A stretch of 64,000 nucleotides of DNA. Source: Escherichia coli. Its GTDB lineage: Bacteria > Pseudomonadota > Gammaproteobacteria > Enterobacterales > Enterobacteriaceae. Location of the stretch: the NCBI RefSeq assembly GCF_003790525.1, contig NZ_CP033635.1. One strand, written 5' to 3'. Shown in pieces: positions 8,679 to 32,710 of the stretch; position 1 is the first letter of the stretch, and each line of letters opens with the position of its first letter. The notes under the pieces were generated by a model, which worked only from the letters and a program-made list of their open reading frames with translations, was not told where the DNA came from and made no database searches. A program made the translations under genes and the position numbers.

Positions 8679-9426
8679 AATATTATCGGTTATACTAATT
8701 AAGTTAAAAAATAAACTATAAATACCAGAGCCTGGTATTATTGCTTGTTTTTTATAAGCAAATAATGAGCTGGGGTTTAAATTATGCCACTAAATGGATA
8801 TTCATCAATACCCCGCCAGAGAGATAGTTGCCCAGCGGGCATAGATCATTATTAGTCAACCAATGAGCATAAATAAGCACAAGGAGGTGTGTATTGCGAA
8901 TAGTAATTCAATGACATGCTGGTGGTTTTTTTGTGGTGAAAATATTTGTACCTTTTTGTTTACGGATGAAAAATAAACAGTCATATTATTTTGGTTAATT
9001 GTTGTGTTAGTTTTAACACTCGGTGATGTTTTTTGTTATAGTGCATTAATTTTTAAATAAAAAAATTCATACATTCATGGATGTAATATATACAAGATAC
9101 AATGTTAATTTTAGATAAAATATTAATTGCATTGGATACTTTTTAAATATGCCGATGTTGAGCTTAATTTTATGAGGGAATACTATTTCGGGTTGTAGGA
9201 CTTTTTTATAATCATCTTATAGGGCTCTTTATATTTACAGGAGGGTTTTGAACGATAGTTACATAACGAAGGTTGTTTATATGCGTTTACAAGCGATTAA
9301 TTAGATTAGGTGAATTTTAATAAATTAATCTATAATCATACAGCAACTATATGAATTATATTATTGACTAAATGTAATTCTTTCATCATAGTTGACATGG
9401 TTATTTTATATAAATAGAGGTGATTT

Positions 9427-10056
9427 ATGCAAAACAGAAAATTTTTAACGCATCATGAAATTAATTTACTACTTCAATCTGTAAGACAAAAGAGTTGCTC
9501 TTCACGCGATGTTTGCATGATTTTATTGGCTTATTTTCATGGTCTGCGTGTTAGTGAGCTCTTATCTCTGCAGTTGTCGGATTTAGAACTAACTACAGAA
9601 AAAATATATATTCAACGGATAAAAAATGGATTCAGTACAGTCCATCCACTTCAAAAGGAAGAGGTGATTGCAATAACAAACTGGCTGAATGAAAGGAATT
9701 CATTAAATGTTAAACATTTCAATGATAACCCGTGGTTATTTGTTTCCCGAACAGGAAAACCATTATCGAGACAACGATTTTATAACATAGTTTCTGCTGC
9801 GGGTAAAAATGCAGGTTTAAATATTAAAGTTCATCCACATATGTTACGCCATGCATGTGGTTATTCACTAGCAGATAATGGTGTGGATACCCGTCTTATT
9901 CAGGACTATCTCGGGCATCGTAATATCAGGCATACGGTAATTTATACTGCTTCTAATTCAATGAGATTTGAAAAAATGTGGGGGAGAGGTGACGCAAAAA
10001 AGCAACATTTTGACCCAAAATGTAAACCCAATCTTTGTTTAGAAATTCTCGTATAG
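9427..10056 (+). CDS. FimB/FimE-family tyrosine site-specific recombinase (IpuA/IpbA-like)
   Basis: 209 aa with HMLRHACGY...LGHRNIRHTVIYTA motifs. Divergent from the first recombinase and co-directional with the regulator and autotransporter genes. Confidence 0.85.
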   Translation: MQNRKFLTHHEINLLLQSVRQKSCSSRDVCMILLAYFHGLRVSELLSLQLSDLELTTEKIYIQRIKNGFSTVHPLQKEEVIAITNWLNERNSLNVKHFNDNPWLFVSRTGKPLSRQRFYNIVSAAGKNAGLNIKVHPHMLRHACGYSLADNGVDTRLIQDYLGHRNIRHTVIYTASNSMRFEKMWGRGDAKKQHFDPKCKPNLCLEILV

Positions 10057-10373
10057 AAAAACATTTTTTTCTATAAAAAACATTAAATTTACTGATTTAG
10101 ATCAATGTGTGACGTCAATCTACACATAAAGAGGTAGGTTTGTCTTCTTTTTAATCTTTGGCGTATAAAGCCAAAATGTAAATAATAATCAAAATTATAT
10201 TCTGAATTAAAATAAATACGCAGGTTTTTTACCTGCGTTTTGTGCTATTTATAGTTAATTAAATTGATGTTGTCAAAATGGGTCATTTTGTAAACCTGTG
10301 CCTCAAGGTTTGTCTCCCCCCGGTGTGCAAAGCAAAAGGAAATTGGGAAAGGGGATAACAGGAAATTGATTGC
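10057..10373. promoter_or_regulatory. Candidate location of the invertible promoter element (ipuS-like switch) between recombinase and regulator genes
   Basis: 317-bp AT-rich gap directly downstream of a Fim-type recombinase and upstream of the regulator-autotransporter operon, the same layout as fimE-fimS-fimA. It contains palindrome TATAGAAAAA-catt-TTTTTCTATA at the recombinase stop, hairpin ACGCAGGT-tttt-ACCTGCGT (10218-10238), and direct repeats TGTAAACC (10021, 10291) and AGGTTTGTCT (10135, 10305). I could not locate the exact 7-bp inverted repeats by eye. Confidence 0.4.
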
Positions 10374-10994
10374 ATGGTTTTGATTACGACGACAAAAAAT
10401 ATTTTTATAATTCAAGCAATTAAGAGTATGCGTTGGCGGGGTTTTTCGTACGTGAAAGTCATCGCTGTGGACGACTATTCTTCTCTGATTCGTGATTTTG
10501 GCACATCTTGCTTTCGGGATGAGCAATCGTTGTTGTTACCTGTATTCCCTGATAATGATTCTACTACCTGTATACGCTCACTGTATTTCATTCACCAATG
10601 GCTAAAAAGCCAGCCTGTCAATATTCCGTGCCTGGCATGGGGGGATAATGGTGTAGTTAGTAATAAAGGCATACCTTCCATACCGTGGAAATTAACAGCA
10701 GAGCAATTTTGTTTCTATATAGATAAATTTATCAATGGCTGGAGGTGCAAAAAAAATATTCGCGCGAGTCATAAAGTTTCTTTTTTAGAACGACAATTAT
10801 CCCCGAGGGAGAAAAGTATCTTTATATATACCAAGGAAGGAAAAGATATTGCATGGATCTCTAACACCTTGGGTATATCCAGTAAGACTGTGTGGACGCA
10901 TCGTCGTAGAGCTATGGATAAACTCGGGGTAAAACGTTTACATCAATTTATAAATATTCCGCGTTCCCTTATTAGTGAAAATATTCAATTATAA
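10374..10994 (+). CDS. LuxR/GerE-type transcriptional regulator (IpuR-like)
   Basis: 206 aa. C-terminal HTH LSPREKSIFIYTKEGKDIAWISNTLGISSKTVWTHRRRAMDKLGV. No receiver domain. Lies 24 bp upstream of the autotransporter gene. The real start may be downstream, e.g. the Met at 10428. Confidence 0.8.
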   Translation: MVLITTTKNIFIIQAIKSMRWRGFSYVKVIAVDDYSSLIRDFGTSCFRDEQSLLLPVFPDNDSTTCIRSLYFIHQWLKSQPVNIPCLAWGDNGVVSNKGIPSIPWKLTAEQFCFYIDKFINGWRCKKNIRASHKVSFLERQLSPREKSIFIYTKEGKDIAWISNTLGISSKTVWTHRRRAMDKLGVKRLHQFINIPRSLISENIQL

Positions 10995-11018
10995 TGTACG
11001 TTCAAGAGTATTAGTGTT

Positions 11019-20819: not shown

Positions 20820-22091
20820 CTATTCTTTCCAGTCAATCCCATCCAGTAAGCACCCTGCCTCATATTGCCCAACAACCCAGTCAAGATTGCAGGACTCATA
20901 GAAAGCGAGGCGATTATACTGTGGCTCGTTTTTTACCAGACCACGAACGGAGCCGCGTTGCCAGTACAGGCACAGATTGGCAAGAGGTGTGATCAGCACA
21001 GCATTGTCCGGGAAAAATGGAACGGTCACAGCCGGAAGATTCCCCAGCACGGGCTTTTTAATGATTTCCTCGTTAAGCAAAATTTCCTGATTCATCTGCG
21101 ATGGATCAAGACGGTTTATCAAAGGCCATTGTTTACGGACCAGAGTATTGTGACTGCATACGGCCACAATGCCTTCCTGCCACTGTTCATCAATCATGGA
21201 TTGCCAGGCATCCAGAACAAGTGCATCTATTGTATGGTGTGTACCGCGTGTATTGCTTGTCGGCGATGAAACAGAAAGACCGCTGATAACCCTTCCCGCT
21301 GCTTCGTTTCGAAACTTCTGCAACCATCCGACGCCGCAATCGTCACGGCCCGGATATGTTTCAGGATCAGATTGATCGGCATAGTGTGTGCCGTTAAAAC
21401 CAATCTGAATTAAATCCAGCCATTTCCGGCGTTCAAAAGCGGCACGGGCGCTTCCTTCAAGACCATTTGCGGACGCGTGAGCATCGACATTGTCGTAGCT
21501 CAACGCAAAATCAAAATTAACCTGCTCGCAGCGGTAGCCTCTTGAAACCAGTGAATGCGCCTGTAGTGGCGAACGGCGCTCGTGAGGTGGCGATGTACGT
21601 GCCAACGGCCGGGAAGCGTCTACCAGCACAACCTGACCTGATATATCCGTAACAGGCACGGGGGTTATTTCAGCAAGGAAATTTGCCTGCCATCCACTGG
21701 CAAGCGTTGCACTCTGGCGGGGAACGGGTTCAACTTCTGACGAATAGCGCGCAGTATCACCGGAAAAGTGCAAATCCTTCGGATGCTTTCCGGTTATCGA
21801 CTCGATAGCGCAATTGAAAACCATCTGAGACTGTTGATTTCGTTGTGATACAACATAATCAGCAGTGCAATTATAACACTCAATGCCGTCGTTATTACCC
21901 CCACCGCTTGCAGTATGCAGGGTGTGAAGCTCAAGCTCACGCTCCAGTTTTTGATATTCATTGTCCAGCGCGCGACGCGTCTCATCGCTTATGCTTGCTG
22001 TGTTTGCTTTCAGGCGATTCCGGGACATTAACTCCCTGAGTCGGCTCACTATATCAGCGCCGTGCAAATGTGAAATATTCAGACCGCCCAT
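20820..22091 (-). CDS. Hypothetical protein B (424 aa), no recognisable domain, second gene of a translationally coupled pair
   Basis: The listed ORF runs to 22232 and overlaps the upstream gene. The likely start is the ATG at 22091, overlapping the upstream stop as TAATG. E. coli-like codon usage throughout. Confidence 0.6.
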   Translation of the reverse strand: MGGLNISHLHGADIVSRLRELMSRNRLKANTASISDETRRALDNEYQKLERELELHTLHTASGGGNNDGIECYNCTADYVVSQRNQQSQMVFNCAIESITGKHPKDLHFSGDTARYSSEVEPVPRQSATLASGWQANFLAEITPVPVTDISGQVVLVDASRPLARTSPPHERRSPLQAHSLVSRGYRCEQVNFDFALSYDNVDAHASANGLEGSARAAFERRKWLDLIQIGFNGTHYADQSDPETYPGRDDCGVGWLQKFRNEAAGRVISGLSVSSPTSNTRGTHHTIDALVLDAWQSMIDEQWQEGIVAVCSHNTLVRKQWPLINRLDPSQMNQEILLNEEIIKKPVLGNLPAVTVPFFPDNAVLITPLANLCLYWQRGSVRGLVKNEPQYNRLAFYESCNLDWVVGQYEAGCLLDGIDWKE

Positions 22092-22801
22092 TACTGCCAC
22101 CCCCGGCAGAGTTCTCTGCCCTCCGCAAGGTCGCGCATTTTTTCTGGATTCTGTCGCGCCGCGCTCCATTGTACAGGTGAAGGGGCGTTCCTGATTGCGT
22201 GGCTTACCGAATCCGGCAGTTTCTCCGGGCAATAACGAAGCGGATTGGAGGCATCGCTCTCAATATCGTTAATCCGGCCGCGAATCAGCCCGACACTTTC
22301 AACAATATCTGCCATTTTCAGTGTTTCACATATTTTCTTTTCTGCGTTATACAGCGGCTGGCCAAGCAGCTCACATAAACCACGAATCAATAGCAGAGCA
22401 GGGGTCAGCTCGTTAATCAGTCCGGGAAGTGCTTTTGCAAATATCTCTGCCCGCAACTTATTATCAATGCTTTGGTAAGCACAGCCAGCCTCTGCCGCGT
22501 TATAACGACACTCCAGTAACCTGATGCGCGCCTCATCATGCAATACCCGCAGACGCTCAAGATTTTCTCGCGCCACACCCGCCTGAATGCATAATTTTGC
22601 GGAGGCTTCCGTTTTTGCGCCCAGCGCAGACAGGATTGAGTTCTGCCAGTCACGTTCGAGAGACTCCAGCTCCCCTTTCGTCTGTTCGATAGTCGCTTCC
22701 AGATTGGTGATTAATGATTCCTGTTCGCTGAGTTTTGCCATGGCCGTATCAAACTGTGCTTTACATGCCTGATGCCTGGCGCTTGCCTGAGTTATATCCA
22801 T
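22091..22801 (-). CDS. Hypothetical alpha-helical/coiled-coil protein A (236 aa); positional equivalent of P4 psu
   Basis: Predicted coiled coil. Sits directly after the Ogr/Delta-like gene on the same strand, as psu does in P4. I cannot verify homology to Psu. Confidence 0.55.
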   Translation of the reverse strand: MDITQASARHQACKAQFDTAMAKLSEQESLITNLEATIEQTKGELESLERDWQNSILSALGAKTEASAKLCIQAGVARENLERLRVLHDEARIRLLECRYNAAEAGCAYQSIDNKLRAEIFAKALPGLINELTPALLLIRGLCELLGQPLYNAEKKICETLKMADIVESVGLIRGRINDIESDASNPLRYCPEKLPDSVSHAIRNAPSPVQWSAARQNPEKMRDLAEGRELCRGWQ

Positions 22802-23249: not shown

Positions 23250-23432
23250 CTATGAAGTTTTCAACTTCCTGCGCTTAGTGATGCGTACAAACGACTCAAG
23301 CGTACAAAAACAAGCCCCACACTCAATATTACTGCACTGGTAATACGTTTTGTAGATGTTTTGTTCGTGCTCTTCCAACGAACGACTACGGGTTCGGGCT
23401 GAAGCGCCACAGGCCGGGCAAGGGAAAGACAT
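23250..23432 (-). CDS. Ogr/Delta-family zinc-finger late-gene transcription activator (P2 Ogr / P4 delta homolog)
   Basis: 60 aa with the CPACG...RTRSR...YYQCSNIECGACFCTLES Cys4 pattern characteristic of Ogr. Confidence 0.8.
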   Translation of the reverse strand: MSFPCPACGASARTRSRSLEEHEQNIYKTYYQCSNIECGACFCTLESFVRITKRRKLKTS

Positions 23433-23721
23433 ATCACGCTCCTCTTACTGGTGTGAAATTTGACCTATTATATCTCCTGCCGCCCCCTCTGGCTGTATCA
23501 AATAAACCCGCAGCAGTCGCCGCGTATTACGGACGGACGCACCGTTCCCATGCTCACTCGTCACATTCCCCGTATCAGTTCTCTCTTACCGTAAGAACGG
23601 CTCTGGCTGGCGATAAAACTAACCCGGTCGGGCATTCCCGCAGTCTTTAGAGAAAATGTAATTTACCCCCTGAAACGTGGGCTGTTCCCCCGTCACCTGC
23701 GCGCGAAAAACTCACCGTTTT

Positions 23722-23820
23722 TTGTGCACGCACGAAATCGCCCTCCGGGTGCGCCAGTACTGGGCCGGATGGGCAAAAAGTTACTCTAAAAAATTGTGCA
23801 AATTTGTGCACTTTTGTGCA
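23722..23820 (+). promoter_or_regulatory. Four TTGTGCA repeats, three phased at 10 bp (23794, 23804, 23814), including palindrome TGCAAATTTGCA
   Basis: Helical-turn phasing of direct repeats is typical of repressor operators or Ogr-dependent late promoters. Confidence 0.4.
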
Positions 23821-24046
23821 GATGAACAATAGCGTGAAAAAGAGTGCTTTTGAGAGATTTTTTATGGCAACTGCGCCGCGTGTATTACGTTTTTTACCAT
23901 CCCCGCCGCGCATGTACATACTTCATTTTTCTGCCAGACAACAGGGCAACTCCCCGTGACTGACAGCCCCAAAAAATCAATGATTGATGTTGCATTTTTG
24001 TTAAAGGTTAGACCAGTTGTTTTAGGGCTCTGCCTCATAATCCGGT

Positions 24047-24360
24047 GGGGGGTGCGCAAAGCGGTTACAACGGTTACAACACTCAAAAACACCACTTAAC
24101 AGCATGATTTTAATGGATATTGTTTGTAACCGCTTTGCGGTTACACTGCGGTTACAACGGTTACAGGTTTCAAAAAGCACTTTATTATCAATCAATTAAA
24201 AACTTAACCTGTAACCGCCTGTAACCTAACAAAACGGTTACATGTAACCGCGTTGTAACCGCTTTTATAACTCATCGGACCAGTTATAATATATTGATAT
24301 ATAATACAAAAATAAGTAATTTTAAATTTGTAACCGTTGTAACCGCTTTGCGCACCCCCC
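24047..24360. repeat. 314-bp dyad-symmetric iteron region; candidate replication origin (ori/crr-like) or recombinase site
   Basis: 33-bp perfect inverted repeat: GGGGGGTGCGCAAAGCGGTTACAACGGTTACAA (24047-24079) and its reverse complement TTGTAACCGTTGTAACCGCTTTGCGCACCCCCC (24328-24360). At least 12 GGTTACA/GTAACCG iterons in both orientations. AT-rich centre. C9 homopolymer at 24355-24363. Confidence 0.7.
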
Positions 24361-24611
24361 CCCAAACTTTAGCGCGACCCTTTAAAATGTTAATTAAACT
24401 CACTTACTCTGTATCTCTCTCGTTAACTCTCTGTTATTGAAATGTATCTCTCCACTGTTTCACTCTTTCTGATAATCAGGGGAAGCAAAAAATTGATGGC
24501 GGCACTACTGCAATATGGCCACCATTGCATTGCTGTTACCGTTGGTTCTGGCCAACAAAAAAGGTCAGCGGGAAACTGACCTCTTTTGCTGTGAATGCGG
24601 CGTTCTGCGGG

Positions 24612-25616
24612 TTACTCTGCTGGCTCTTTTTCTTCGGTGATCACTATGTTGGCTACCGGGTTAAATCTCATGGCATCTGCCAGATAATCCGGTGCAAAAT
24701 GTGCGTATGCCATAGTCTGCTGAATTGTCGCATGCCCAAGGATTTTTTGTAGCGCAAGAATGTTGCCACCGTTCATCACAAAGTGACTGGCGAATGTATG
24801 CCGCAATACATGCGCAGCCTGCCCCCTCGGTAAATCGGGTTTTATTTTTTTTAATGCCCGGCAAAACTCTCTGTACTTCACATCAAACAGTCGCCCGGTT
24901 TCTTTTGTTTTTACGGCATCGCATATTTCCTGCGACACAGGCACCGTTCTTTTTCTACCGTTTTTGGTTTCCAGAAACGTTATTCTGTTATGAACTATTT
25001 GCTCTCCATGCAATCTGCTGGCCTCACTCCAGCGGGCTCCGGTACAAAGACACAAGAGCGCAACCCTTCGTTGATCTCCATTCAGCCCGTCAAGCAACAA
25101 TGTGACCTCGTTTTTTGATAAAAAGGCCATTTCCCGCTGCTTTACATAAAGAACAGGAATACCACGAACCGGATGCTCTGCATCCCACAAACCGATCTTT
25201 TTCAGGGCTGTAAACATCCCCGATAATCTGTTCATGTATCTGTTTGCTGAGGACGGCTTTAATCCTTCCGCAATTTTCTGCGATCGCCATGCAATGATTT
25301 TTAATTTGTTGAGTTCTGCCGCAAACATGTCAGCTCCAAGCTCATTAATAATTTTGCCAAGTTGCTGTTTATCCGTGTTTGCCTTTCGCCTGTGCTGACC
25401 GTGATAGACCCACCACAATTCCAGTAAATCGCTAAGCGTTCTCCGGTCGCGATAGCCCTGTATAAACTCGCGCTTTTCGGCGTTCGCTATGATGTACCGT
25501 TCAGTTGCTGTAGCTATCGATTTTTTGTCAAATATTCTTCTGATGCGCTTCCCTTTACGTCCGCATGGCCTGATATCGAGCAGCCACCGCCCATCATGCA
25601 TCTTTCTGATCGGCAT
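24612..25616 (-). CDS. P2-Int-like tyrosine recombinase (second integrase/recombinase of the element)
   Basis: MPIRKMHDGRWLLDIRPCGRKGKRIRRIFDKKS resembles the P2 Int N-terminus, with C-terminal HVLRHTFASHF...LGHATIQQTMAYAHF catalytic motifs. Start chosen 3 bp after the primase stop. The listed ORF extends into the primase gene. Confidence 0.8.
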   Translation of the reverse strand: MPIRKMHDGRWLLDIRPCGRKGKRIRRIFDKKSIATATERYIIANAEKREFIQGYRDRRTLSDLLELWWVYHGQHRRKANTDKQQLGKIINELGADMFAAELNKLKIIAWRSQKIAEGLKPSSANRYMNRLSGMFTALKKIGLWDAEHPVRGIPVLYVKQREMAFLSKNEVTLLLDGLNGDQRRVALLCLCTGARWSEASRLHGEQIVHNRITFLETKNGRKRTVPVSQEICDAVKTKETGRLFDVKYREFCRALKKIKPDLPRGQAAHVLRHTFASHFVMNGGNILALQKILGHATIQQTMAYAHFAPDYLADAMRFNPVANIVITEEKEPAE

Positions 25617-25618
25617 GT

Positions 25619-28288
25619 TTAACTCCCCTCCTTGTAACTGAATATCCGGCATTTCAGTACTTCCGGCTCTCTGGCCTCGGCGACCCCTCTTCCGGCGTTT
25701 GCCTGTCTGGAGACCTCACTACGAATGGTTTTGCGGCCTGTCAAAGGTCGGGAACGTCCGGCTGCGAGCAACTCAATCATTTCGCGGTCAGTTCGGATCT
25801 CCACGCGGTGAATAGCGGCAGCCTGTGCCAGTTGCGGAATACTGATAGCAATCCCCTCGCGGCATCCCTTGCCGTAGTGGTTTACACCGTATTTTGTTAT
25901 GCCGTCCAGATAGTCGAACGCCTCCCAGAACGCTATTACTTCCGGCAAGTCATCCGTTACCGCTTTAACTTGTTCCGCTGCCATTCGTTCCAGTTCCTGG
26001 CATGTGGCATTAAGCCATTCATCCGGGATATCAATAACGCATTTCAGCGCCCTGACCAGCGCAATAAGTTGCGCGTGATTTTTGGCAATACGGGGATGGA
26101 GAATATTTTCGCAACCGCAAAGGCGGGTCGTTTCAGGCTCTGAGAGCGCCAGAAACATTTCCATAATTGCCCGTTCACGGCTGACTGCCCGATGAATAAA
26201 CCCTGACACCTTCTCAACGGGGTAGAGTTCCAGTCGTCTCGCCGCCAGCCGGGTATCAGACGAGTGGCGCTTTTTATCGGTATATATGCGAATCAGTCGC
26301 TCAATAATTGCAAGTGAGGCGTTTACCCTGGCATTCTGTGCAATCACGATAGCGCCCTTAAAATCCGGGTCATAGGTGTTGTTATTGTTGGTCTTAACGC
26401 CACGAACGCCGATACCGCCGCCGTTATAGAGGCTTTTCAGGTTATCGAAGTCAAACGCACCTCTTTTTTGCGCATTGCCTCCCCTGTCTGCTTCAATCAG
26501 AACAACAGGTAATCCGGCGACCTGTCCAAAGGTGCGCTTCCAGCCCGCCTCTGATCCTTTGGTTGGATCAACGCCTTCATAGTTGTCACGACCGCACAAC
26601 CGCCAGCAAAAATCAATCAATGTTGATTTACCCGTTCCGGGCTCCCCGGTGACTTCAAGGAAGGGGAAGGATTCTTCTTTATCCCGGATTTGTTCGCTGA
26701 ACAGGGAGCCCAACCAGAAAGCCAGGGTAATAATTCCTTTTTCACCAAAAGCCAGCCAGAGATCTTCCACCCAGGACTCTGTAAACTCATCCGGTTTTTT
26801 GTAGTTAATCTGTAATGTGGGTTTTTCGCTTAATGGTTTTGCGTTTATGCCATCAATTTCAAAATAATCTTCGTCATTGATTTCATAAGTTTTTCCCTTG
26901 TAAACAGCAATATCATTAAACAGCCATGCCCCAATCGCCTTGTTGTATCCGATAAAATCCTGACCAATAACCTCTTTTATTGCGGGAAGGTCATTTTTTA
27001 TTAATGCGTCAAGGTGCGCAGTTGTTCCGGTATAAATGCCGCCTTTTGCCACATGCAACAGGCGTTTTTTAAATTCAGATGCGGATGTCAATTGTCCTGA
27101 TGTAAAGGTGTTTTTCACCGTAGCACCATCCGGGAACGTAACACGGAAGTAATACCATGCTTCATCCGTGTCATTATTTCTAATGTAATAAAGCGGCGCT
27201 GGGTTACAGTTTGCGATTTCTTTTACTGCGCCAGATTCCTTAAGTGCAATTTTGCGCGCTTCATCCTCATCAACACTTCTCTCATTCTTGGCACGCTCTA
27301 CAGCTTTCATATAGCGCTCAATGTCCAGTTTGAACCAGAAAACACGGTTATCAAAAGTAAAATGAAATTCCTTCCGCTCACGAAAGGAAAATATTATTAG
27401 CGCCTTATCTCTCGGAGATTTCGCCAGCAATAAATCACCGTAATGACGGTATCTTTTCACATCATGGCCACGCAGCTTTCCGGCGATGTGTAAATCATTC
27501 CAGTCGCGTTTATTGTTGTTTTTACCTGGCAACGCCGCTGCCGTTCTCCAGCCGTCTTCGGCGCTGCGTTCTGCATGTTTTTTCGCGTAACGCTCACCCG
27601 CACGCCCGTTATCCAGCGCCCACACAATAACCGGACGGGGATTATCCCCGCACAGCTTCGCCAGCTCTTCCAGCGCCTTATCAGGGTAGTTCACGGCAGA
27701 CATGACAGAAACGGCCGCAATGCCATTCTGGTTAAGGCTGATGGCATCAAAGATGCCCTCACAAATCCAGATTTCTTTGGCCTTGCTTAAATCTGCTCCC
27801 GGATAAGCCCACCACAACCCCTTGTAGCTGCCGGAAAAATTCGCCTTGCGCGCGAAGCGTCCCGGTCGGTCTATGATGCGCTCCCACCACACGCCGTCAG
27901 CCAGCGTAAAACGCACAGTAGCGGCCTGTTCGCCGTTTTCCTTGTCCTGGTATCGCTCCTGAGTAAATGCGCCCTTCAGTGGCCCCACAGCAATATTGCG
28001 CGCCTCCTGAAGATAAGCTGCCACCGCTGCATATGGCTCGTCTTTCGTGCTGATATAACGATCTGACCATGATGAAAACACATCCGGGTAAAGTTCTTTG
28101 GTCAGCAGGTCTGTACCGCATTTATTTTCGCGCCCACAGTGTACGATGTACGGCCTTTCAAGGCTGGTAAACAACTCTTTCTTTCCACATTGCGGACAAA
28201 CACCATACCGGAGGTAGTTATTTTCTTCTTTGAAGTTGTAATCACGGATAAGACGGTTAATAATCTCTTTTCTGATGTCAGATTTCAT
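25619..28288 (-). CDS. P4-alpha-like primase-helicase (zinc-ribbon primase + D5_N + SF3 helicase Walker A GEPGTGKS)
   Basis: About 890 aa. N-terminal CPQCG...HCGRENKCG zinc ribbon and a central P-loop. Size and architecture match satellite-phage replication proteins. Confidence 0.8.
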   Translation of the reverse strand: MKSDIRKEIINRLIRDYNFKEENNYLRYGVCPQCGKKELFTSLERPYIVHCGRENKCGTDLLTKELYPDVFSSWSDRYISTKDEPYAAVAAYLQEARNIAVGPLKGAFTQERYQDKENGEQAATVRFTLADGVWWERIIDRPGRFARKANFSGSYKGLWWAYPGADLSKAKEIWICEGIFDAISLNQNGIAAVSVMSAVNYPDKALEELAKLCGDNPRPVIVWALDNGRAGERYAKKHAERSAEDGWRTAAALPGKNNNKRDWNDLHIAGKLRGHDVKRYRHYGDLLLAKSPRDKALIIFSFRERKEFHFTFDNRVFWFKLDIERYMKAVERAKNERSVDEDEARKIALKESGAVKEIANCNPAPLYYIRNNDTDEAWYYFRVTFPDGATVKNTFTSGQLTSASEFKKRLLHVAKGGIYTGTTAHLDALIKNDLPAIKEVIGQDFIGYNKAIGAWLFNDIAVYKGKTYEINDEDYFEIDGINAKPLSEKPTLQINYKKPDEFTESWVEDLWLAFGEKGIITLAFWLGSLFSEQIRDKEESFPFLEVTGEPGTGKSTLIDFCWRLCGRDNYEGVDPTKGSEAGWKRTFGQVAGLPVVLIEADRGGNAQKRGAFDFDNLKSLYNGGGIGVRGVKTNNNNTYDPDFKGAIVIAQNARVNASLAIIERLIRIYTDKKRHSSDTRLAARRLELYPVEKVSGFIHRAVSRERAIMEMFLALSEPETTRLCGCENILHPRIAKNHAQLIALVRALKCVIDIPDEWLNATCQELERMAAEQVKAVTDDLPEVIAFWEAFDYLDGITKYGVNHYGKGCREGIAISIPQLAQAAAIHRVEIRTDREMIELLAAGRSRPLTGRKTIRSEVSRQANAGRGVAEAREPEVLKCRIFSYKEGS

Positions 28289-28336
28289 ATATAAAACTCC
28301 ACCCCACTGCACCTTTTGCCGTGGGGTTTTTATTAA

Positions 28337-28636
28337 TTACTCGTTACTTATTGCTTTGGCAATCCCGGCGGTTTCAGCACTATGCCATGAAAAAATTCCG
28401 CCAGAAGTATGCATTCCTGACTTAATCACTCGTAATTCCCGATAAAGAATGTTAGTTAATGATTCCATTTCATTAATTTGCACTGGCATTCTCTCACTGG
28501 TATTAATTTCACCTGTCAATGCTGAAATGAGCGCAATAACATTTATTACATCTTCAAGATTCTCAATGGAATCTTCCGTGAAAAAACCAGCGTATTCTTT
28601 TTTGTATATATTGCGGATATTCTGATTTTCAGACAT
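28337..28636 (-). CDS. Hypothetical small protein (99 aa), satellite early region
   Basis: ORF co-directional with the primase gene. No recognisable motif. Confidence 0.35.
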   Translation of the reverse strand: MSENQNIRNIYKKEYAGFFTEDSIENLEDVINVIALISALTGEINTSERMPVQINEMESLTNILYRELRVIKSGMHTSGGIFSWHSAETAGIAKAISNE

Positions 28637-28703
28637 AAAAACTCCCCGACCCGTTAAGATCGAAATATAAATTTAATTCAGTTATCAGTTGGTAATTCGG
28701 TAA

Positions 28704-28922
28704 TCAGTCGGAAAGCTGCGTCACCTTCAACGCTTTGAAATGTGTCATTCCCAGCTCTTCCAGCCCTTCGGCTGCGCGGCGTATGGCTTCGCCCGGTCCC
28801 GTTCCGTATACCGTTGCATGTGCATGTTTGGTTAACCCACGTTTATTAACGGCATAACCCAACACAAAGAAACGTTTTTCACCACTGCCATTATTTTTAC
28901 GGGATATTGAACGGCTTTTCAT
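28704..28922 (-). CDS. Hypothetical small basic protein (72 aa)
   Basis: ORF in operon context. Its start overlaps the upstream ORF stop. Confidence 0.35.
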   Translation of the reverse strand: MKSRSISRKNNGSGEKRFFVLGYAVNKRGLTKHAHATVYGTGPGEAIRRAAEGLEELGMTHFKALKVTQLSD

Positions 28923-29104
28923 TTCTTCACCCTTACCACTGATGCTGTGAGTTCTTCTGGCAATTGATATTTCGGCGCAATTTCTTCCGTATACCTGATA
29001 GCGTCCCTTGCCGCTTTTCCTTTTGATTTATATTTATATGTGGTGCGGTAGTTTTCTTCCTCTCCTGTTACCACATTACGCAATTTTATATGAATCTCGT
29101 ACAT
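28919..29104 (-). CDS. Hypothetical small protein (about 61 aa, start MYEIHIKL)
   Basis: ORF in operon context. Confidence 0.3.
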   Translation of the reverse strand: MYEIHIKLRNVVTGEEENYRTTYKYKSKGKAARDAIRYTEEIAPKYQLPEELTASVVRVKK

Positions 29105-29281
29105 CGTTACCCCTCCATGATTTTTACTGCGCATTTGTGGGTTAATCGCCCCTGTTTGTCATTGCGGGAATATGCCATACGACAGGTATCACGCCATGCA
29201 TCGTCATAAGTCGGATATTCCCGGGAATGAATCATCTGGCGAACGTCGCCGTTCTGGTAGTTAATCAGGGTGATAAGGAGC

Positions 29282-29809
29282 TTAAACATGGCACGCCTCC
29301 CGGACACGGATACGGGCAACAAAGACCAGACGGGATGCCGGAAGCAGGGCGCGCGCTTCGCGCTCACTGGCAGCGGTAACGGTATGAAGGCGGATATTTT
29401 TACCGTGGCACTGCATAAAGCGCCAGATAAAATCAGGGCGTGTTGATATAGCCATTTTGGCGGCTCCTTGATTAAGTTTACGGAGTCTCGCCAGCACGCT
29501 GTCAAACATGGTGGCGGGACGTAACAGGGTTGACAGACTGGCAATCAAGGAACCAGCGAGCGCAAAGGCTCCCCCATTACGCCCCGCCATAATACGGGGT
29601 AGGGTGGAATTACGGGCACAAAAAAACCGCATTACGGAAATATAGCGGCTACCCGCTTGATTGTTCAGGCTGTCAAACCCGGCACCCGCTTTATGAGGTG
29701 CGGGCAAACGATACGCCATGACAAAAAAGCGAGTCAAGCAATATTGCAAATTATTTTTGCGCAATTGCGCTGAGTGATTGATTTTTAAGAGTAAAAAAGT
29801 CATAATCAT
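29282..29809 (-). CDS. Hypothetical protein, satellite early region (start uncertain; overlaps a frame-shifted ORF at 29107-29544)
   Basis: Two overlapping ORFs are listed. Possible frameshift, or only one is real. Confidence 0.3.
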   Translation of the reverse strand: MIMTFLLLKINHSAQLRKNNLQYCLTRFFVMAYRLPAPHKAGAGFDSLNNQAGSRYISVMRFFCARNSTLPRIMAGRNGGAFALAGSLIASLSTLLRPATMFDSVLARLRKLNQGAAKMAISTRPDFIWRFMQCHGKNIRLHTVTAASEREARALLPASRLVFVARIRVREACHV

Positions 29810-29870
29810 TTCTGCCTATTGTTTCTTATTGTTGATTTCAGGTGCACTAAATGCACATCCTTGACTGGTT

Positions 29871-29899
29871 GGCTCGCTGGCTTTAGCGAGCTTCTTTTT
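29871..29899 (+). terminator. Plus-strand intrinsic-terminator-like hairpin in a region otherwise transcribed on the minus strand
   Basis: GCTCGCT-ggcttt-AGCGAGC followed by TTCTTTTTT. Confidence 0.45.
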
Positions 29900-30084
29900 T
29901 GCTCTGCTGCCAATACCCGGCCTCCTTCCCTCACATGTAGTCATGTGCTCATTCCAGTCAGGTGGATAATGCTGTATTACCGGACATCCGGTTATGATGT
30001 TTAAAGCGTTTGTTTGTTTATGCCACGTGGAGAATATACCCCCACCGCCATTACTTGTATTTATCATAACAGTTCACCCAATTC

Positions 30085-30101
30085 GGTTAATGTAACCGGA
30101 A
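30085..30101. repeat. Perfect palindrome CCGGTTA-atg-TAACCGG sharing the GGTTA/TAACCG iteron core of the ori-like region
   Basis: Second cis site 5.9 kb from the main iteron cluster, on the other side of the primase gene. This parallels the P4 ori/crr arrangement. Confidence 0.4.
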
Positions 30102-30362
30102 TAACTCAATTTCATACACTGTAAATAAATGCTGATTTTAAACTTAGCTCCTTGGAATATATTTCTTACGTGTGACGCACAGGTGAAAATATCCCTCTGA
30201 TAGTCCATTTTCTTTTATTTTGTCACATCTGTTTACTCCGGTTCCCTTAACAAGGGTAGAGCATCTTTTAAACCATGAATGCATCTTCGGTTAAGTGATG
30301 TTTCTTATTGTATGAAATATTTAGGCGCATATCGCGCCATGCTGACTATAAAATGAAAATAA

Positions 30363-30584
30363 TTAAGCCTGAAAACGTTGTTGTTTTCTTTCTTCTATCC
30401 AGTCGATAATTTCCTCTTCAACCCATGCAACCGCGCGAGGGCCTATTTTTATTGGTTTGGGGAATATATCAGATTTTATATCTTCGTAAATTCGAGCTCT
30501 TGATCTCCCTGTGATTTCAATGACTCTGGGGAGTCTTATTAATTTTTGAATCCGCCTTTCGCTGGTCTGTGAGTATGCTGACAT
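30363..30584 (-). CDS. alpA: AlpA-family phage transcriptional regulator (MerR-like HTH/excisionase-like)
   Basis: 73 aa. RLPRVIEITGRSRARIYEDIKSDIFPKPIKIGPRAVAWVEEEI is the AlpA/prophage CP4-57 regulator signature. Confidence 0.8.
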   Translation of the reverse strand: MSAYSQTSERRIQKLIRLPRVIEITGRSRARIYEDIKSDIFPKPIKIGPRAVAWVEEEIIDWIEERKQQRFQA

Positions 30585-31112
30585 ATTGGCCTCCTGTATA
30601 TGCTGACATTTTACGTTAGCTCACAGCGGGAGCATGTAAGATCTCGCGGTCGTCTGCGGGACGAGAAAAATCATAAACAACGAAAAGCGGATTTGTAAAT
30701 CAGGTCGATTTTCAGGCGGGGTTGACATGGACAGTGAGATTTGTTCCATGTGTGCAATATACATTTTAGGACCACTTTAAGCCACTTTAAACCGCCAGAA
30801 AGCGACAAAGAATAACAAGTTAGTGCCAGAAAGGTTTGCTGACTTACCCTTTTAGGTACCAGAAAAAGCCCTTTCAGGTCGGTGTAATGCTTGTGAACGC
30901 TGAAATAGTGGTTTCTGAAAACAAAAAAAGAATTGAAAATGTGATAAATATCACAAAATAATATCGATAAAATAGTTTGATTTTTTTGTTTTTATTAAAA
31001 GCACTGGTTAATTGTAAAAAATTAATTATAAATCAAATGGATATATCTGTTTTTTTAGGGTAAAAATCACTAGGTGCTTTTAGCAGTATCTTATTCTATT
31101 GATTTTAAAAGA

Positions 31113-31147
31113 TAAAAAAATCGGCGTGTCCACATATTGTCCACGCC
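31113..31147 (-). terminator. Rho-independent terminator of the P4-type int gene
   Basis: Hairpin GGCGTG...CACGCC followed on the minus strand by a T8 run. Confidence 0.55.
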
Positions 31148-31194
31148 TTGAGTTTAATTCAGCCGCTTGGGATAGTTTAGTTTGTTGAGTTGAT

Positions 31195-32457
31195 TCAGTC
31201 TGTTTCGTTAGTCCATTTAAAATCATAGGGGGAAATATATGCCGCCTTGCAGGTGTCGAGATAATCAGCCCACCATTGCAACATTCGGCGGCGTTCCTGC
31301 ATATGTTCAGCTCTGTGAACGTATGCAGCCCGGACACTGCCTCTTTCCCTGTGACTCATCTGAAGCTCAACGGCTTCTCTTGTCCACCTGCCTGACTCTG
31401 TCAGCGCCGAACAGGCCATGGTCCTGAATCCGTGACCACAAATATCTTTTTTTGTGTCGTATCCCATGTGGCGTAATGCCTTGTTAATGGTGTTTTCGCT
31501 CATTGGTTTTATCTGGTAATGGTCGCTGGGGAAAATAAACACTTCATCACCGGATATATTTCTTATATCGTCAAGAAGCTGCATGGCCTGAGTGGGTAAA
31601 GGGATGGCGTGAGGGGTTCCCATTTTCGTTCCACGATATGAATATTTTACGCCTTCTATTTTTTCGCGTTCTGCTGGTATTACCCACATTGATTTATCAA
31701 AGTCAATTTCATTCCAACGAGCAAAACGCAATTCACTTGAGCGAATAAAAATTAATAAATTTAATTTTAGTGCAAATTGCGTTAATAACCGTCCATTCAT
31801 CTTATGGTGGTAATCATTTATTTTGCCAAGTAATTCAGGTAATCGCTCAAGGGGAAGAGCGGGGCGATGTTTGGTTTTATTAGTTTCGATTGCACCGTTC
31901 AGTTCCTGCGCTGGATTGTATTTAATCATTCCATTCTGTACAGCGTAGCGCATAATGGCGTTCATTCGCTGCTTGTTACGTGATGCTGTCTCAAGCACTC
32001 CTTTGTCTTCCATTTTGCGTAAAGGAATCAGTAGATCCATGGTTGTGATCTCGTTAATTGGCCTTTTACCAAGAATGGGGAAGATGTGGTTTTCCAGGTC
32101 TTTTAAGACTTTTTGCGCGTGCAATTCGCTCCAGCCCTTTTTCCGGCTGTGCCATTCTCTGGCAACGTCTTCAAAAAGCACTATTTGAGGTTTTGGTGTG
32201 TGCAGTGGGTCAATGCCTTTAGCCAGGCTCGCCAGATATTCATCACGAGCGTTCCTTGCCTGTGCAAGTGTTACGGCAGGATAAATGCCTAAAGCTCGGG
32301 TCGTTTCTTTACCGTTGATAACCTTGCGAAAGCGCCAGTATTTTGAGCCGTTGGGGTGAACATAGAGATACAGGCCTTTCCCGTCACGAAGTTTTTTAAT
32401 TTTATTGTTGTCCTTATCTGGTTTGGCGTTACGTACAGCTATATCAGTCAGTTTCAT
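31195..32457 (-). CDS. P4-type tyrosine integrase (DUF4102 arm-binding + catalytic domain)
   Basis: Start chosen at MKLTDIAVRNAKP. Catalytic motifs GHGFRTMA and MSHRERGSVRAAYVHR. Directly adjacent to the 3' end of argW. Confidence 0.9.
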   Translation of the reverse strand: MKLTDIAVRNAKPDKDNNKIKKLRDGKGLYLYVHPNGSKYWRFRKVINGKETTRALGIYPAVTLAQARNARDEYLASLAKGIDPLHTPKPQIVLFEDVAREWHSRKKGWSELHAQKVLKDLENHIFPILGKRPINEITTMDLLIPLRKMEDKGVLETASRNKQRMNAIMRYAVQNGMIKYNPAQELNGAIETNKTKHRPALPLERLPELLGKINDYHHKMNGRLLTQFALKLNLLIFIRSSELRFARWNEIDFDKSMWVIPAEREKIEGVKYSYRGTKMGTPHAIPLPTQAMQLLDDIRNISGDEVFIFPSDHYQIKPMSENTINKALRHMGYDTKKDICGHGFRTMACSALTESGRWTREAVELQMSHRERGSVRAAYVHRAEHMQERRRMLQWWADYLDTCKAAYISPYDFKWTNETD

Positions 32458-32635
32458 TATGTTGATCCTCCAGACGGGTACAAATAAAAATCGAACCAAG
32501 CATACCCGCTTTTATACCCATTTTAATATGGGCTTCAGGCAAATTTAACGAGAGAAAATGAGACAATGGGAGATGTTTAACTCATTGAAAGTAAATGGAT
32601 AATGGTTTTTTCTGAGAGGTTGCAAGAAGTTGCGA

Positions 32636-32710
32636 TGGTGTCCCCTGCAGGAATCGAACCTGCAATTAGCCCTTAGGAGGGGCTCGTTATATCCATTTAA
32701 CTAAGAGGAC
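32636..32710 (-). tRNA. argW: tRNA-Arg (CCU anticodon)
   Basis: Reverse complement gives GTCCTCTTAGTTAAATGGATATAACGAGCCCCTCCTAAGGGCTAATTGCAGGTTCGATTCCTGCAGGGGACACCA, with anticodon loop CT-CCT-AA. Confidence 0.9.

Follow-up and report, generated by a model that had tools for sequence, protein, structure and literature searches.

A P2-type integrase carried as an exchangeable internal cassette in P4-like satellites of Escherichia coli

The DNA described here is a 64,000-nucleotide stretch of an Escherichia coli genome (assembly GCF_003790525.1, contig NZ_CP033635.1), referred to below as the window. It contains a P4-like satellite, a 12.7-kb island at the tRNA-Arg(CCT) gene argW, and the subject of this report is a second tyrosine recombinase gene, located in the interior of that island (internal int). 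The principal genes of the island are all on the minus strand. In that direction the order is the terminal integrase int1, the regulator AlpA, an RNA immunity region with an Icd-like open reading frame (ORF), three small ORFs, a primase-helicase gene, and the internal int. These are followed by a terminator hairpin, an iteron origin of replication (ori), a segment resembling a phage cohesive-end (cos) site, an ogr/Delta gene, a gene for a 236-amino-acid coiled-coil protein, and a capsid gene. A MazEF pair is on the plus strand. Positions are given in Table 1, and related loci in other genomes are labeled with an L and a number.

An earlier note on this DNA had placed a P4-type integrase next to argW and a P2-Int-like recombinase behind the primase, and had suggested a chimeric P4/P2 element. 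The composition of the island agrees with this. The immunity RNA, AlpA, primase, and tRNA-site integrase are P4-like, while the second integrase, capsid gene, ogr, and cos are of the P2 family. The int1 ORF spans 31195-32499 and is 136 nucleotides from the tRNA gene; its start was set at 32457 by homology.

The internal integrase gene

The internal int protein contains the Pfam domains Int_N (5.5e-24) and Phage_integrase (8.8e-20). Compared with solved structures, it matches the P2 integrase (5c6k, E-value of 5e-80) and the HP1 integrase (1aih, 4e-48). It is 81% identical in amino acid sequence to the Int of the Xuanwuvirus phages P884B11, Chuche, and PhiR44_2 and of Citrobacter phiSM, and 51% identical to P2 Int. 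In the arm-binding N-terminal domain, 42 of 55 residues are identical to the phage protein. The catalytic set is complete (R195, K218, H269, R272, H295, and Y304), and none of the inactivating changes that the earlier note had considered was found in these six residues.

The gene begins with an ATG at 25616-25614, downstream of the primase stop codon (TAA, 25621-25619). The adjacency of the two genes reported earlier therefore stands, with a spacer of 2 rather than 3 nucleotides. A strong ribosome-binding site (AAGGAGGGGAG) is located in the final primase codons. The short gap and the position of this site inside the primase gene suggest that the internal int is probably co-expressed with the primase. 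A hairpin followed by a T-run is present at 24553-24591, downstream of the internal int.

Table 1. Features of the satellite and of the nearby phage attachment site, in window coordinates.
Feature	Position	Strand	Basis or remark
attL, left end of satellite	19947-19966		Imperfect repeat of argW 3' end
MazE-like antitoxin	20184-20432	+	RefSeq annotation of homologues in L001 and L002
PemK/MazF toxin	20432-20776	+	PemK_toxin 1.1e-24; RefSeq annotation of homologues in L001 and L002
P2-family major capsid gene, 423 amino acids	20820-22091	-	Pfam Phage_cap_P2 2.2e-73; PHROG 70 major head protein 1.5e-77
Coiled-coil protein, 236 amino acids; start overlaps capsid gene	22091-22801	-	Weak Tropomyosin match only
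Ogr/Delta-type zinc-finger late-gene activator	23250-23432	-	Pfam Ogr_Delta 2.3e-11
cos-like segment, P88-type (Xuanwuvirus)	23655-23821		About 160 nucleotides, non-coding; 77.5-82.4% identical to P88-like phage segment
Origin of replication	24044-24363		CGGTTACA iterons in both orientations, AT-rich stretch, 36-nucleotide inverted repeats at edges
Conserved 3' flank of cassette	24364-24640	-	Satellite-specific tail codons (...NIVITEEKEPAE), stop, terminator hairpin, spacer
Internal P2-family integrase, allele A, 334 amino acids	24612-25616	-	Swapped body ~24640/24822 to 25630
Toprim primase-helicase (P4 alpha analogue)	25619-28288	-	Toprim_2 7e-13; weak DUF5906; PHROG 1139 DNA primase 2.4e-297
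Three small ORFs upstream of primase	28337-29134	-	Hypothetical proteins in relatives; no Pfam/PHROG family
Immunity region	29282-29809	-	C4 antisense RNA 29507-29594, isrK 29620-29701, a1/b1 target 29662-29714, Icd-like ORF
AlpA/Vis-type regulator	30363-30584	-	Pfam Phage_AlpA 5.5e-17
Tandem P2-family arm-type motif GTGTCCACATATTGTCCACG	31126-31145	+	About 50 nucleotides after int1 stop
Terminal P4-type integrase int1	31195-32457	-	Pfam Arm-DNA-bind_3, Phage_int_M, Phage_integrase
tRNA-Arg(CCT) argW, 3' end is attR	32636-32710	-	ARAGORN; Rfam tRNA; repeat with attL
Empty attB for P884B11-type phages, flk-pdxB interval	63191-63212		21 of 22 bases as in phage attP core

A search of other genomes for the primase-recombinase arrangement, which the earlier note had proposed, identified about 55 copies of the element core among 5,426 complete E. 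coli genomes, as well as relatives in Salmonella. The internal int is present in every E. coli copy, and the copies are colinear across it. They are inserted at argW or at hpt-gcd and have unrelated terminal integrases. The int1 module is exchanged among copies at different chromosomal sites, and the terminal integrase of the hpt-gcd copies is a different one with 22% identity. Variant elements retain the block of ogr, ori, int, and primase although their capsid module is placed elsewhere. In Salmonella satellites, the corresponding slot holds a gene of 62-76% identity, preceded by a DUF927 primase or a D5_N helicase. The DNA of these replicases is unrelated to that of the window primase, and D5_N/Pox_D5 was found in some of the Salmonella relatives. 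All examined elements, the E. coli copies and the Salmonella loci alike, have a terminal-integrase module on one side and host genes on the other. Three of the four Salmonella relatives (L060, L061, and L064) have a Gp49/HI1420 (HigBA-like) toxin-antitoxin pair directly after the internal integrase, at approximately 9070-9760 of those loci.

The ratio of nonsynonymous to synonymous substitution rates (dN/dS) of the internal int is 0.06-0.13, with satellite-satellite pairs included, and the gene is intact in all copies seen. By this measure it is under purifying selection and is not a relic, and the common, inert gene envisaged earlier as one outcome was not observed.

A scan of GTDB species representatives with the internal int gave one further copy of the arrangement (L007), and the other loci were mostly integrases of ordinary P2-like prophages. 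At L010 (Enterobacter vonholyi) and L015 (Microbulbifer), a P2-family integrase adjoins, divergently, a gene homologous to the satellite primase (identities of 52% and 29%, respectively). In these two possible satellites, the terminal integrase may be of the P2 type. A scan of IMG/VR with the primase returned prophage-derived records, not packaged genomes. More distant primases in this database (43% identity) have no downstream int.

The cassette and its phage counterparts

Five alleles of the internal int (A, C, D, E, and F) were found in the one slot. They are 47-58% identical to one another in pairwise comparison, and the catalytic motifs are intact in all of them. In the census of complete E. 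coli genomes, allele A has 28 copies and allele D has seven; the remainder match the conserved flank only and are other alleles such as E and F. Allele A occurs in five IMG/VR records, allele E in four, and allele F in one.

The contrast between the gene and its surroundings is seen when the window is aligned with L001 (strain HNSQ2209). The two elements are approximately 93-95% identical across their length, and the internal integrase is only 47% identical, with a divergent block at about 24716-25631. Outside the cassette, strong divergence in this pair is confined to 26111-26181 in the primase gene, 28419-28629 in a 99-amino-acid ORF, and 29654-29694 in the RNA immunity region. The first of these is a 70-nucleotide patch in surroundings of about 95% identity. 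L002 and L007 also diverge from the window there, so this divergence is specific to the window. The alignment with L066 shows 90% identity in the primase, 50-65% (DNA) in the int body, and 92% downstream of the stop codon.

Along the cassette, satellites with other alleles match the window at the conserved 3' flank only. The alleles all end in a tail of their own, FNPVAN(I/M)..(E/Q)KEPAE, which is satellite-specific. It stands where the phage Ints have GG.SVH..ST, the stretch whose codons make up the phage P arm. The exchange breakpoints lie in conserved int motifs and vary by allele, which is the pattern expected from repeated homologous exchange with phage int genes. Taken together, these alignments show replacement of the int body by recombination with int genes from P2/P88-like phages, the flanking satellite DNA remaining constant. 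No cis site that co-varies with the int allele was found anywhere in the satellite in the backbone comparisons of the window with L001 and L066.

The phages that share the cos of the satellite carry three Int types, and each type has a satellite counterpart. Allele A corresponds to the Int of P884B11, Chuche, PhiR44_2, and phiSM (81% amino acid identity), allele D to that of P88 (77%), and allele E to that of vB_EcoM-569R5, 705R2, and Entero_P88(23) (87.5%). For allele C, the counterpart is the int of a prophage next to prpC that is P2-like and has Cox and repressor genes; identity is 94% at the amino acid level and 91% at the nucleotide level. The L064 allele, from a Salmonella satellite, shows 93% identity with the Int that a Salmonella P2-like prophage at pdxB encodes. 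For allele F, the collection searched offers no close phage, the best match being 57%.

Some allele-A satellites share a genome with P88-like DNA at the pdxB end. In strain STEC316, which has such a satellite, an int of the P884B11 type adjoins pdxB. The STEC306-308 lineage has an allele-A satellite (L086 in STEC306) and a partly decayed P88-like prophage beyond flk, at the pdxB end. A further P2-type int is present in 13 of 35 typed satellite genomes, compared with approximately 6% of all genomes, clonal relatives being counted separately. These co-residence data lend weak support to the function proposed below.

The origin, the cos-like segment, and attachment sites

As the earlier note had described, the internal int is followed by a region of iterons and inverted repeats and then by the Ogr/Delta gene. 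Twelve of the 14 copies of CGGTTACA in the window are located within 24062-24345, between the 36-nucleotide inverted repeats; 1.9 would be expected over the whole window. The inverted repeat is 97% complementary. The ori segment between the repeats has one orientation in all six relatives compared (L001-L004, L007, and L066), which argues against an invertible switch of the FimB/FimE type at these repeats.

The segment between ori and ogr resembles DNA of P88-like phages. In P88, the matching segment is about 290 nucleotides from the portal gene. In the linear P884B11 record it occupies positions 42-110, near the start, and that record also holds a second place that matches. About 435 complete E. 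coli genomes contain the segment, unannotated. It is most likely the cos site of the satellite, as judged from these matches. The P2/P4 cos sequence GGCGAGGCGGGGAAAGCAC was absent even when three mismatches were allowed, and the cos is of the P88 type instead. Since the cos-like segment matches phages of the P88/Xuanwuvirus group, this is the probable helper group. Together, the cos, ogr, capsid gene, and second integrase of the satellite point to P2-like helpers, specifically of this group. The satellite ogr is 50% identical to the ogr of P88-like phages.

The arrangement had also been likened to the ogr-attP-int corner of P2, and this comparison does not hold. In the phages with the closest Int, the final int codons overlap with tandem arm repeats (GTGTCCACGCAGTGTCCACG), the core lies about 200 nucleotides further, and a second arm follows. 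In P2-like prophages, too, the same tandem motif directly follows int at most of the loci examined. The DNA likeness of the internal int to P88-like int genes ends about 60 nucleotides before the stop codon, and no P arm (tandem TGTCCAC), core, or P' arm was found after it. A P88-type phage attachment site (attP) beside the internal int was rejected, as BLAST and k-mer comparison with the phage attP region gave only chance-level 11- to 13-mers. Beside the internal int or elsewhere in most of the satellites, nothing above a chance-level 11-nucleotide match to the core was found, and there was no tandem TGTCCAC. The spacer between int and ogr consists of the origin and the cos of the satellite and is not an attachment site. 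Furthermore, ogr and the internal int point the same way in the satellite; their counterparts in P88-like phages run toward each other, with attP between them.

One tandem TGTCCAC is present in the window, at 31127-31144, within the int1 module. The motif that contains it, GTGTCCACATATTGTCCACG, matches the P arm of phage Chuche at 18 of 20 bases with the same 11-nucleotide spacing. Every argW-type int1 module has the motif, regardless of which internal allele is present. The hpt-type and Salmonella satellites lack it, and it is therefore no general partner for the internal int. It may be a relic or serve the internal integrase as a binding site.

The only match in the window to the 22-nucleotide phage core is the bacterial attachment site (attB) next to flk (62094-63089), about 30 kb from the satellite. 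This is the target of the phage Int closest to allele A. A P884B11-type prophage is present in 319 of the 5,426 complete E. coli genomes, and its int adjoins pdxB in every listed example.

The internal int is best explained, from its sequence and context, as a functional integrase of the helper-phage type that is carried as an exchangeable cassette by a family of P4-like satellites and has no attachment site of its own.

The remaining parts of the satellite are as follows. The attachment repeats are ATGGTGTCCCTGCAGAAATC at 19947 and ATGGTGTCCCCTGCAGGAATC at 32635, and likeness to the other argW copies of the element begins at approximately 19940-19950 on the left. The primase (889/897 amino acids) matches Toprim_2 and, weakly, DUF5906, with no match to PF03288 (Pox_D5). 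With the iteron ori it is a functional analogue of the P4 protein. In the immunity region, the Rfam scores are 74.6 bits for C4 (gathering threshold of 45) and 50.6 bits for isrK (gathering threshold of 50). The C4 RNA, isrK, and a1/b1 target sit within the ORF that RefSeq calls Icd-like in relatives. PHROG matches of this ORF are restricted to residues 121-175, and because Icd-type families match only these C-terminal ~55 amino acids, the annotated ORF is probably too long.

In the capsid protein, an N-terminal extension of about 130 amino acids precedes the Pfam match. The variants L003, L004, and L066 have a shorter capsid gene (350 amino acids, 24% identical) with a 291-amino-acid partner, and both are placed between alpA and the Icd-like gene. 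The 236-amino-acid protein is 92-93% conserved in L001, L002, and L007. It has no match to Psu, Sid, or a PHROG family in Pfam and PHROG, a dedicated Sid profile not having been used. A scaffold or size-determination factor would be a guess at its function.

To the left of the satellite are a tyrosine recombinase of FimB/FimE size (209 amino acids, 9427-10056), a LuxR-type regulator (10374-10994), and a 2,637-amino-acid autotransporter with ESPR, PATR, and AC_1 domains (11019-18932). This segment, 9427-18932, may be a phase-variable adhesin island. It is missing from strain HNSQ2209, where dsdC directly adjoins the satellite.

Proposed function and relation to known systems

The internal int is a two-site integrase that has long been maintained intact, with a conserved arm-binding domain, repeatedly swapped target specificities (pdxB or prpC-adjacent), no attP, and no co-varying site in the satellite. 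From this combination we propose that it acts in trans on the attachment sites of the helper. It probably acts on helper DNA rather than on satellite DNA; the constant orientation of ori and the pattern of alleles argue against a job on the satellite's own DNA, be it a second integration route, multimer resolution, or inversion. The most plausible role of such a trans-acting, helper-matched integrase would be the excision of a resident helper prophage, a proposal that we hold tentatively and with slightly less than even confidence.

Excision would proceed as follows. In a cell that harbors a P2-like helper as a resident prophage, the replication genes of the satellite would be activated. Int from the satellite and Cox from the derepressed helper would then jointly excise the helper. 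The excised helper would then replicate and express its late genes at high dosage, and the satellite would be packaged in capsids made with its own capsid protein. The allele carried would set which helper lineages the satellite can exploit. P2 prophages are non-inducible, and work of Bertani in 1970 and of Six and Lindqvist in 1978 reportedly found that excision of a P2 prophage after derepression is limited by the supply of Int. The proposal fits this biology, in which excision is poor after derepression and Int is limiting. Integration of P2 requires Int, IHF, and two att sites (PMC7581858), and Cox, the excision factor of P2, also activates P4 (PMC5009727).

Several points weigh against this proposal. 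The cos-like segment was not found in the variants of the L003/L066 type or in three of the four Salmonella loci. In the window's own genome the pdxB attB is empty, and most satellite genomes are without a matching prophage, so a resident helper is not the rule. Strain ETEC4067 is an apparent mismatch, with an A-type prophage at pdxB and allele E, the latter deduced from its sister strain ETEC4069. The satellite alleles are 77-94% and not 100% identical to the phage Ints, so drift in core specificity is conceivable. Homologous recombination with co-resident phages could have swapped alleles as a neutral side effect, and the altered C-terminal tail could change the activity of the protein. We infer that the protein acts on helper att sites, and likewise whether it would excise or integrate the helper there and what the satellite would gain.

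Helper matching and the missing cis site would fit equally well if the satellite interfered with its helper. An Int with an altered tail could bind helper arm and core sites, or enter helper Int tetramers, and derail integration or excision, and the helper genome would not be propagated while its late genes were still used. The tail after the catalytic tyrosine is always satellite-specific, and in lambda-type integrases this tail regulates activity between subunits. A poison subunit needs no catalysis, yet no allele has lost any of the six catalytic residues and dN/dS is low throughout the protein, and interference is on balance unlikely. The satellite Int might otherwise integrate an incoming helper (attP x attB), which would create a resident helper or trap the helper genome with only satellite DNA packaged. 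A lytic helper makes Cox, which inhibits integration, and brings its own Int. Expression with the primase, if the two are co-expressed, would fall in the replicative phase of the satellite, which usually ends in lysis. Such lysogenization is decidedly doubtful on these grounds, even with the empty allele-A-type attB 30 kb away in the window, the co-residence of satellites and pdxB prophages in some lineages, and the sufficiency of Int and IHF for P2 integration (PMC7581858).

Multimer resolution and site switching, both raised in the earlier note, are disfavored by int bodies of 47-58% identity in backbones of about 95% identity without a co-varying cis site. As a second integration system, the internal Int would insert the satellite at attB sites of P2-like phages. 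It has the full integrase architecture with an arm-binding domain, and argW-type elements do have one tandem arm-type motif. However, this motif belongs to the int1 module and not to the allele, and hpt-type and Salmonella elements lack it. There is no attP, core match, or paired arms, alleles with different targets (pdxB and prpC-adjacent) lie in near-identical flanks, and every examined copy is bounded by a terminal-integrase module and host genes, with the ~55 E. coli copies colinear, which makes site switching improbable. Resolution of multimers, or maintenance of the replicative form as a plasmid in the manner of Cre/loxP or Xer/cer, draws on the position of the gene beside primase and ori in all family members, whatever the replicase type, and on the ability of P4-like elements to replicate as plasmids (PMC8628076). 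It would need a cis site matched to the recombinase, and the alleles share both flanks and ori. The protein has an arm-binding domain and is an integrase of the two-site kind, not a simple Xer/Cre type, and the ori segment flanked by inverted repeats never inverts among the six relatives; this role, too, is quite improbable. Finally, truncation at the phage 3' end and loss of attP would be in keeping with the nested remnant of a P2-like prophage corner that had been suggested. An inert remnant is scarcely credible, given an ORF that is conserved under purifying selection in every family copy examined, persists in satellites of both Escherichia and Salmonella whose replicases differ, and has repeatedly been re-supplied with new intact alleles.

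The P4-like satellite family was defined by Moura de Sousa and Rocha in 2021 (PMC8628076). Of its markers, the element has an integrase at its end at a tRNA att site, AlpA (PF05930), and Delta/Ogr (PF04606). Its length of ~12.7 kb, the RNA immunity of the C4/CI type with an Icd-like gene, the primase-helicase with an iteron origin, and the helper-type cos are further likenesses. RNA-based immunity is a trait of P4 and is outside the seven markers of the family-defining paper. The differences are a Toprim_2/DUF5906 primase in place of the Pox_D5 marker, the element's own P2-family capsid gene with the 236-amino-acid protein, and the second, internal integrase. No Psu (PF07455) match was found in the 236-amino-acid protein or the other ORFs tested, and nothing Sid-like was recognized, no search dedicated to Sid having been made. 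Epsilon (PF10554) was not detected; the small ORFs at 28337-29134 have no Pfam/PHROG family, and other small ORFs were partly covered.

An integrase next to alpha has been recorded in fewer than 1% of P4-like cases and ascribed to neighboring mobile elements (PMC8628076). That pipeline and SatelliteFinder (PMC10085698) keep one integrase per element, so this conserved second integrase has been filtered out by design. The papers searched contain no description of this satellite family or of a helper integrase borne by a satellite.

The internal int shares with the Peduoviridae integrases (P2 5c6k, HP1 1aih, and Xuanwuvirus P88/P884B11) the three-part architecture, the R-K-H-R-H-Y set, and, between satellite alleles and particular phage Ints, 77-94% identity. 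In these phages, the int gene marks an end of the prophage and is found downstream of C, the repressor gene, and opposite cox. The satellite gene, in contrast, is internal, behind the primase, and not beside C/cox; it has no adjacent attP, and the C-terminal tail that overlaps the P arm is replaced. It differs from Xer/Cre systems in its arm-binding N-terminal domain and in the absence of a matched inverted-repeat site in cis. The element resembles phage-inducible chromosomal islands of the capsid-forming kind (cf-PICIs) in encoding its own major capsid protein. Compared with the cf-PICI definition (PMC10085698), it has the capsid gene and one possible scaffold gene only, on a P4-like backbone and with a P2-like helper. 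No portal, protease, terminase, or head-tail connector genes were recognized with Pfam/PHROG, and it is therefore not a cf-PICI. The proposed logic recalls the cross-talk of P4 epsilon/delta and P2 Cox, in which the product of one partner acts on the DNA or regulators of the other, with the difference that a site-specific recombinase, taken over as a copy from the helper, is proposed as the agent in this case; no precedent for this was found in the papers searched.

As sequence findings, the cassette pattern and its correspondence with helper Int types are firm and were unexpected; the function is what we infer from them. It is possible, if somewhat short of probable, that these satellites cut the helper prophage out of the chromosome (or into it) on their own schedule, by means of an attP-less and allele-swappable copy of the helper integrase. 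If so, satellites would have a previously undescribed means of controlling their helpers. Regulators, capsid-size factors, and packaging proteins make up the known exchange between satellites and helpers, and site-specific recombination would be added to these. This could help explain how non-inducible P2-like prophages are exploited. The integrase allele would then be a determinant of helper range, kept current by recombination with helpers, and alleles A, C, D, E, and F in near-identical backbones form a natural experiment on integrase specificity and helper range.

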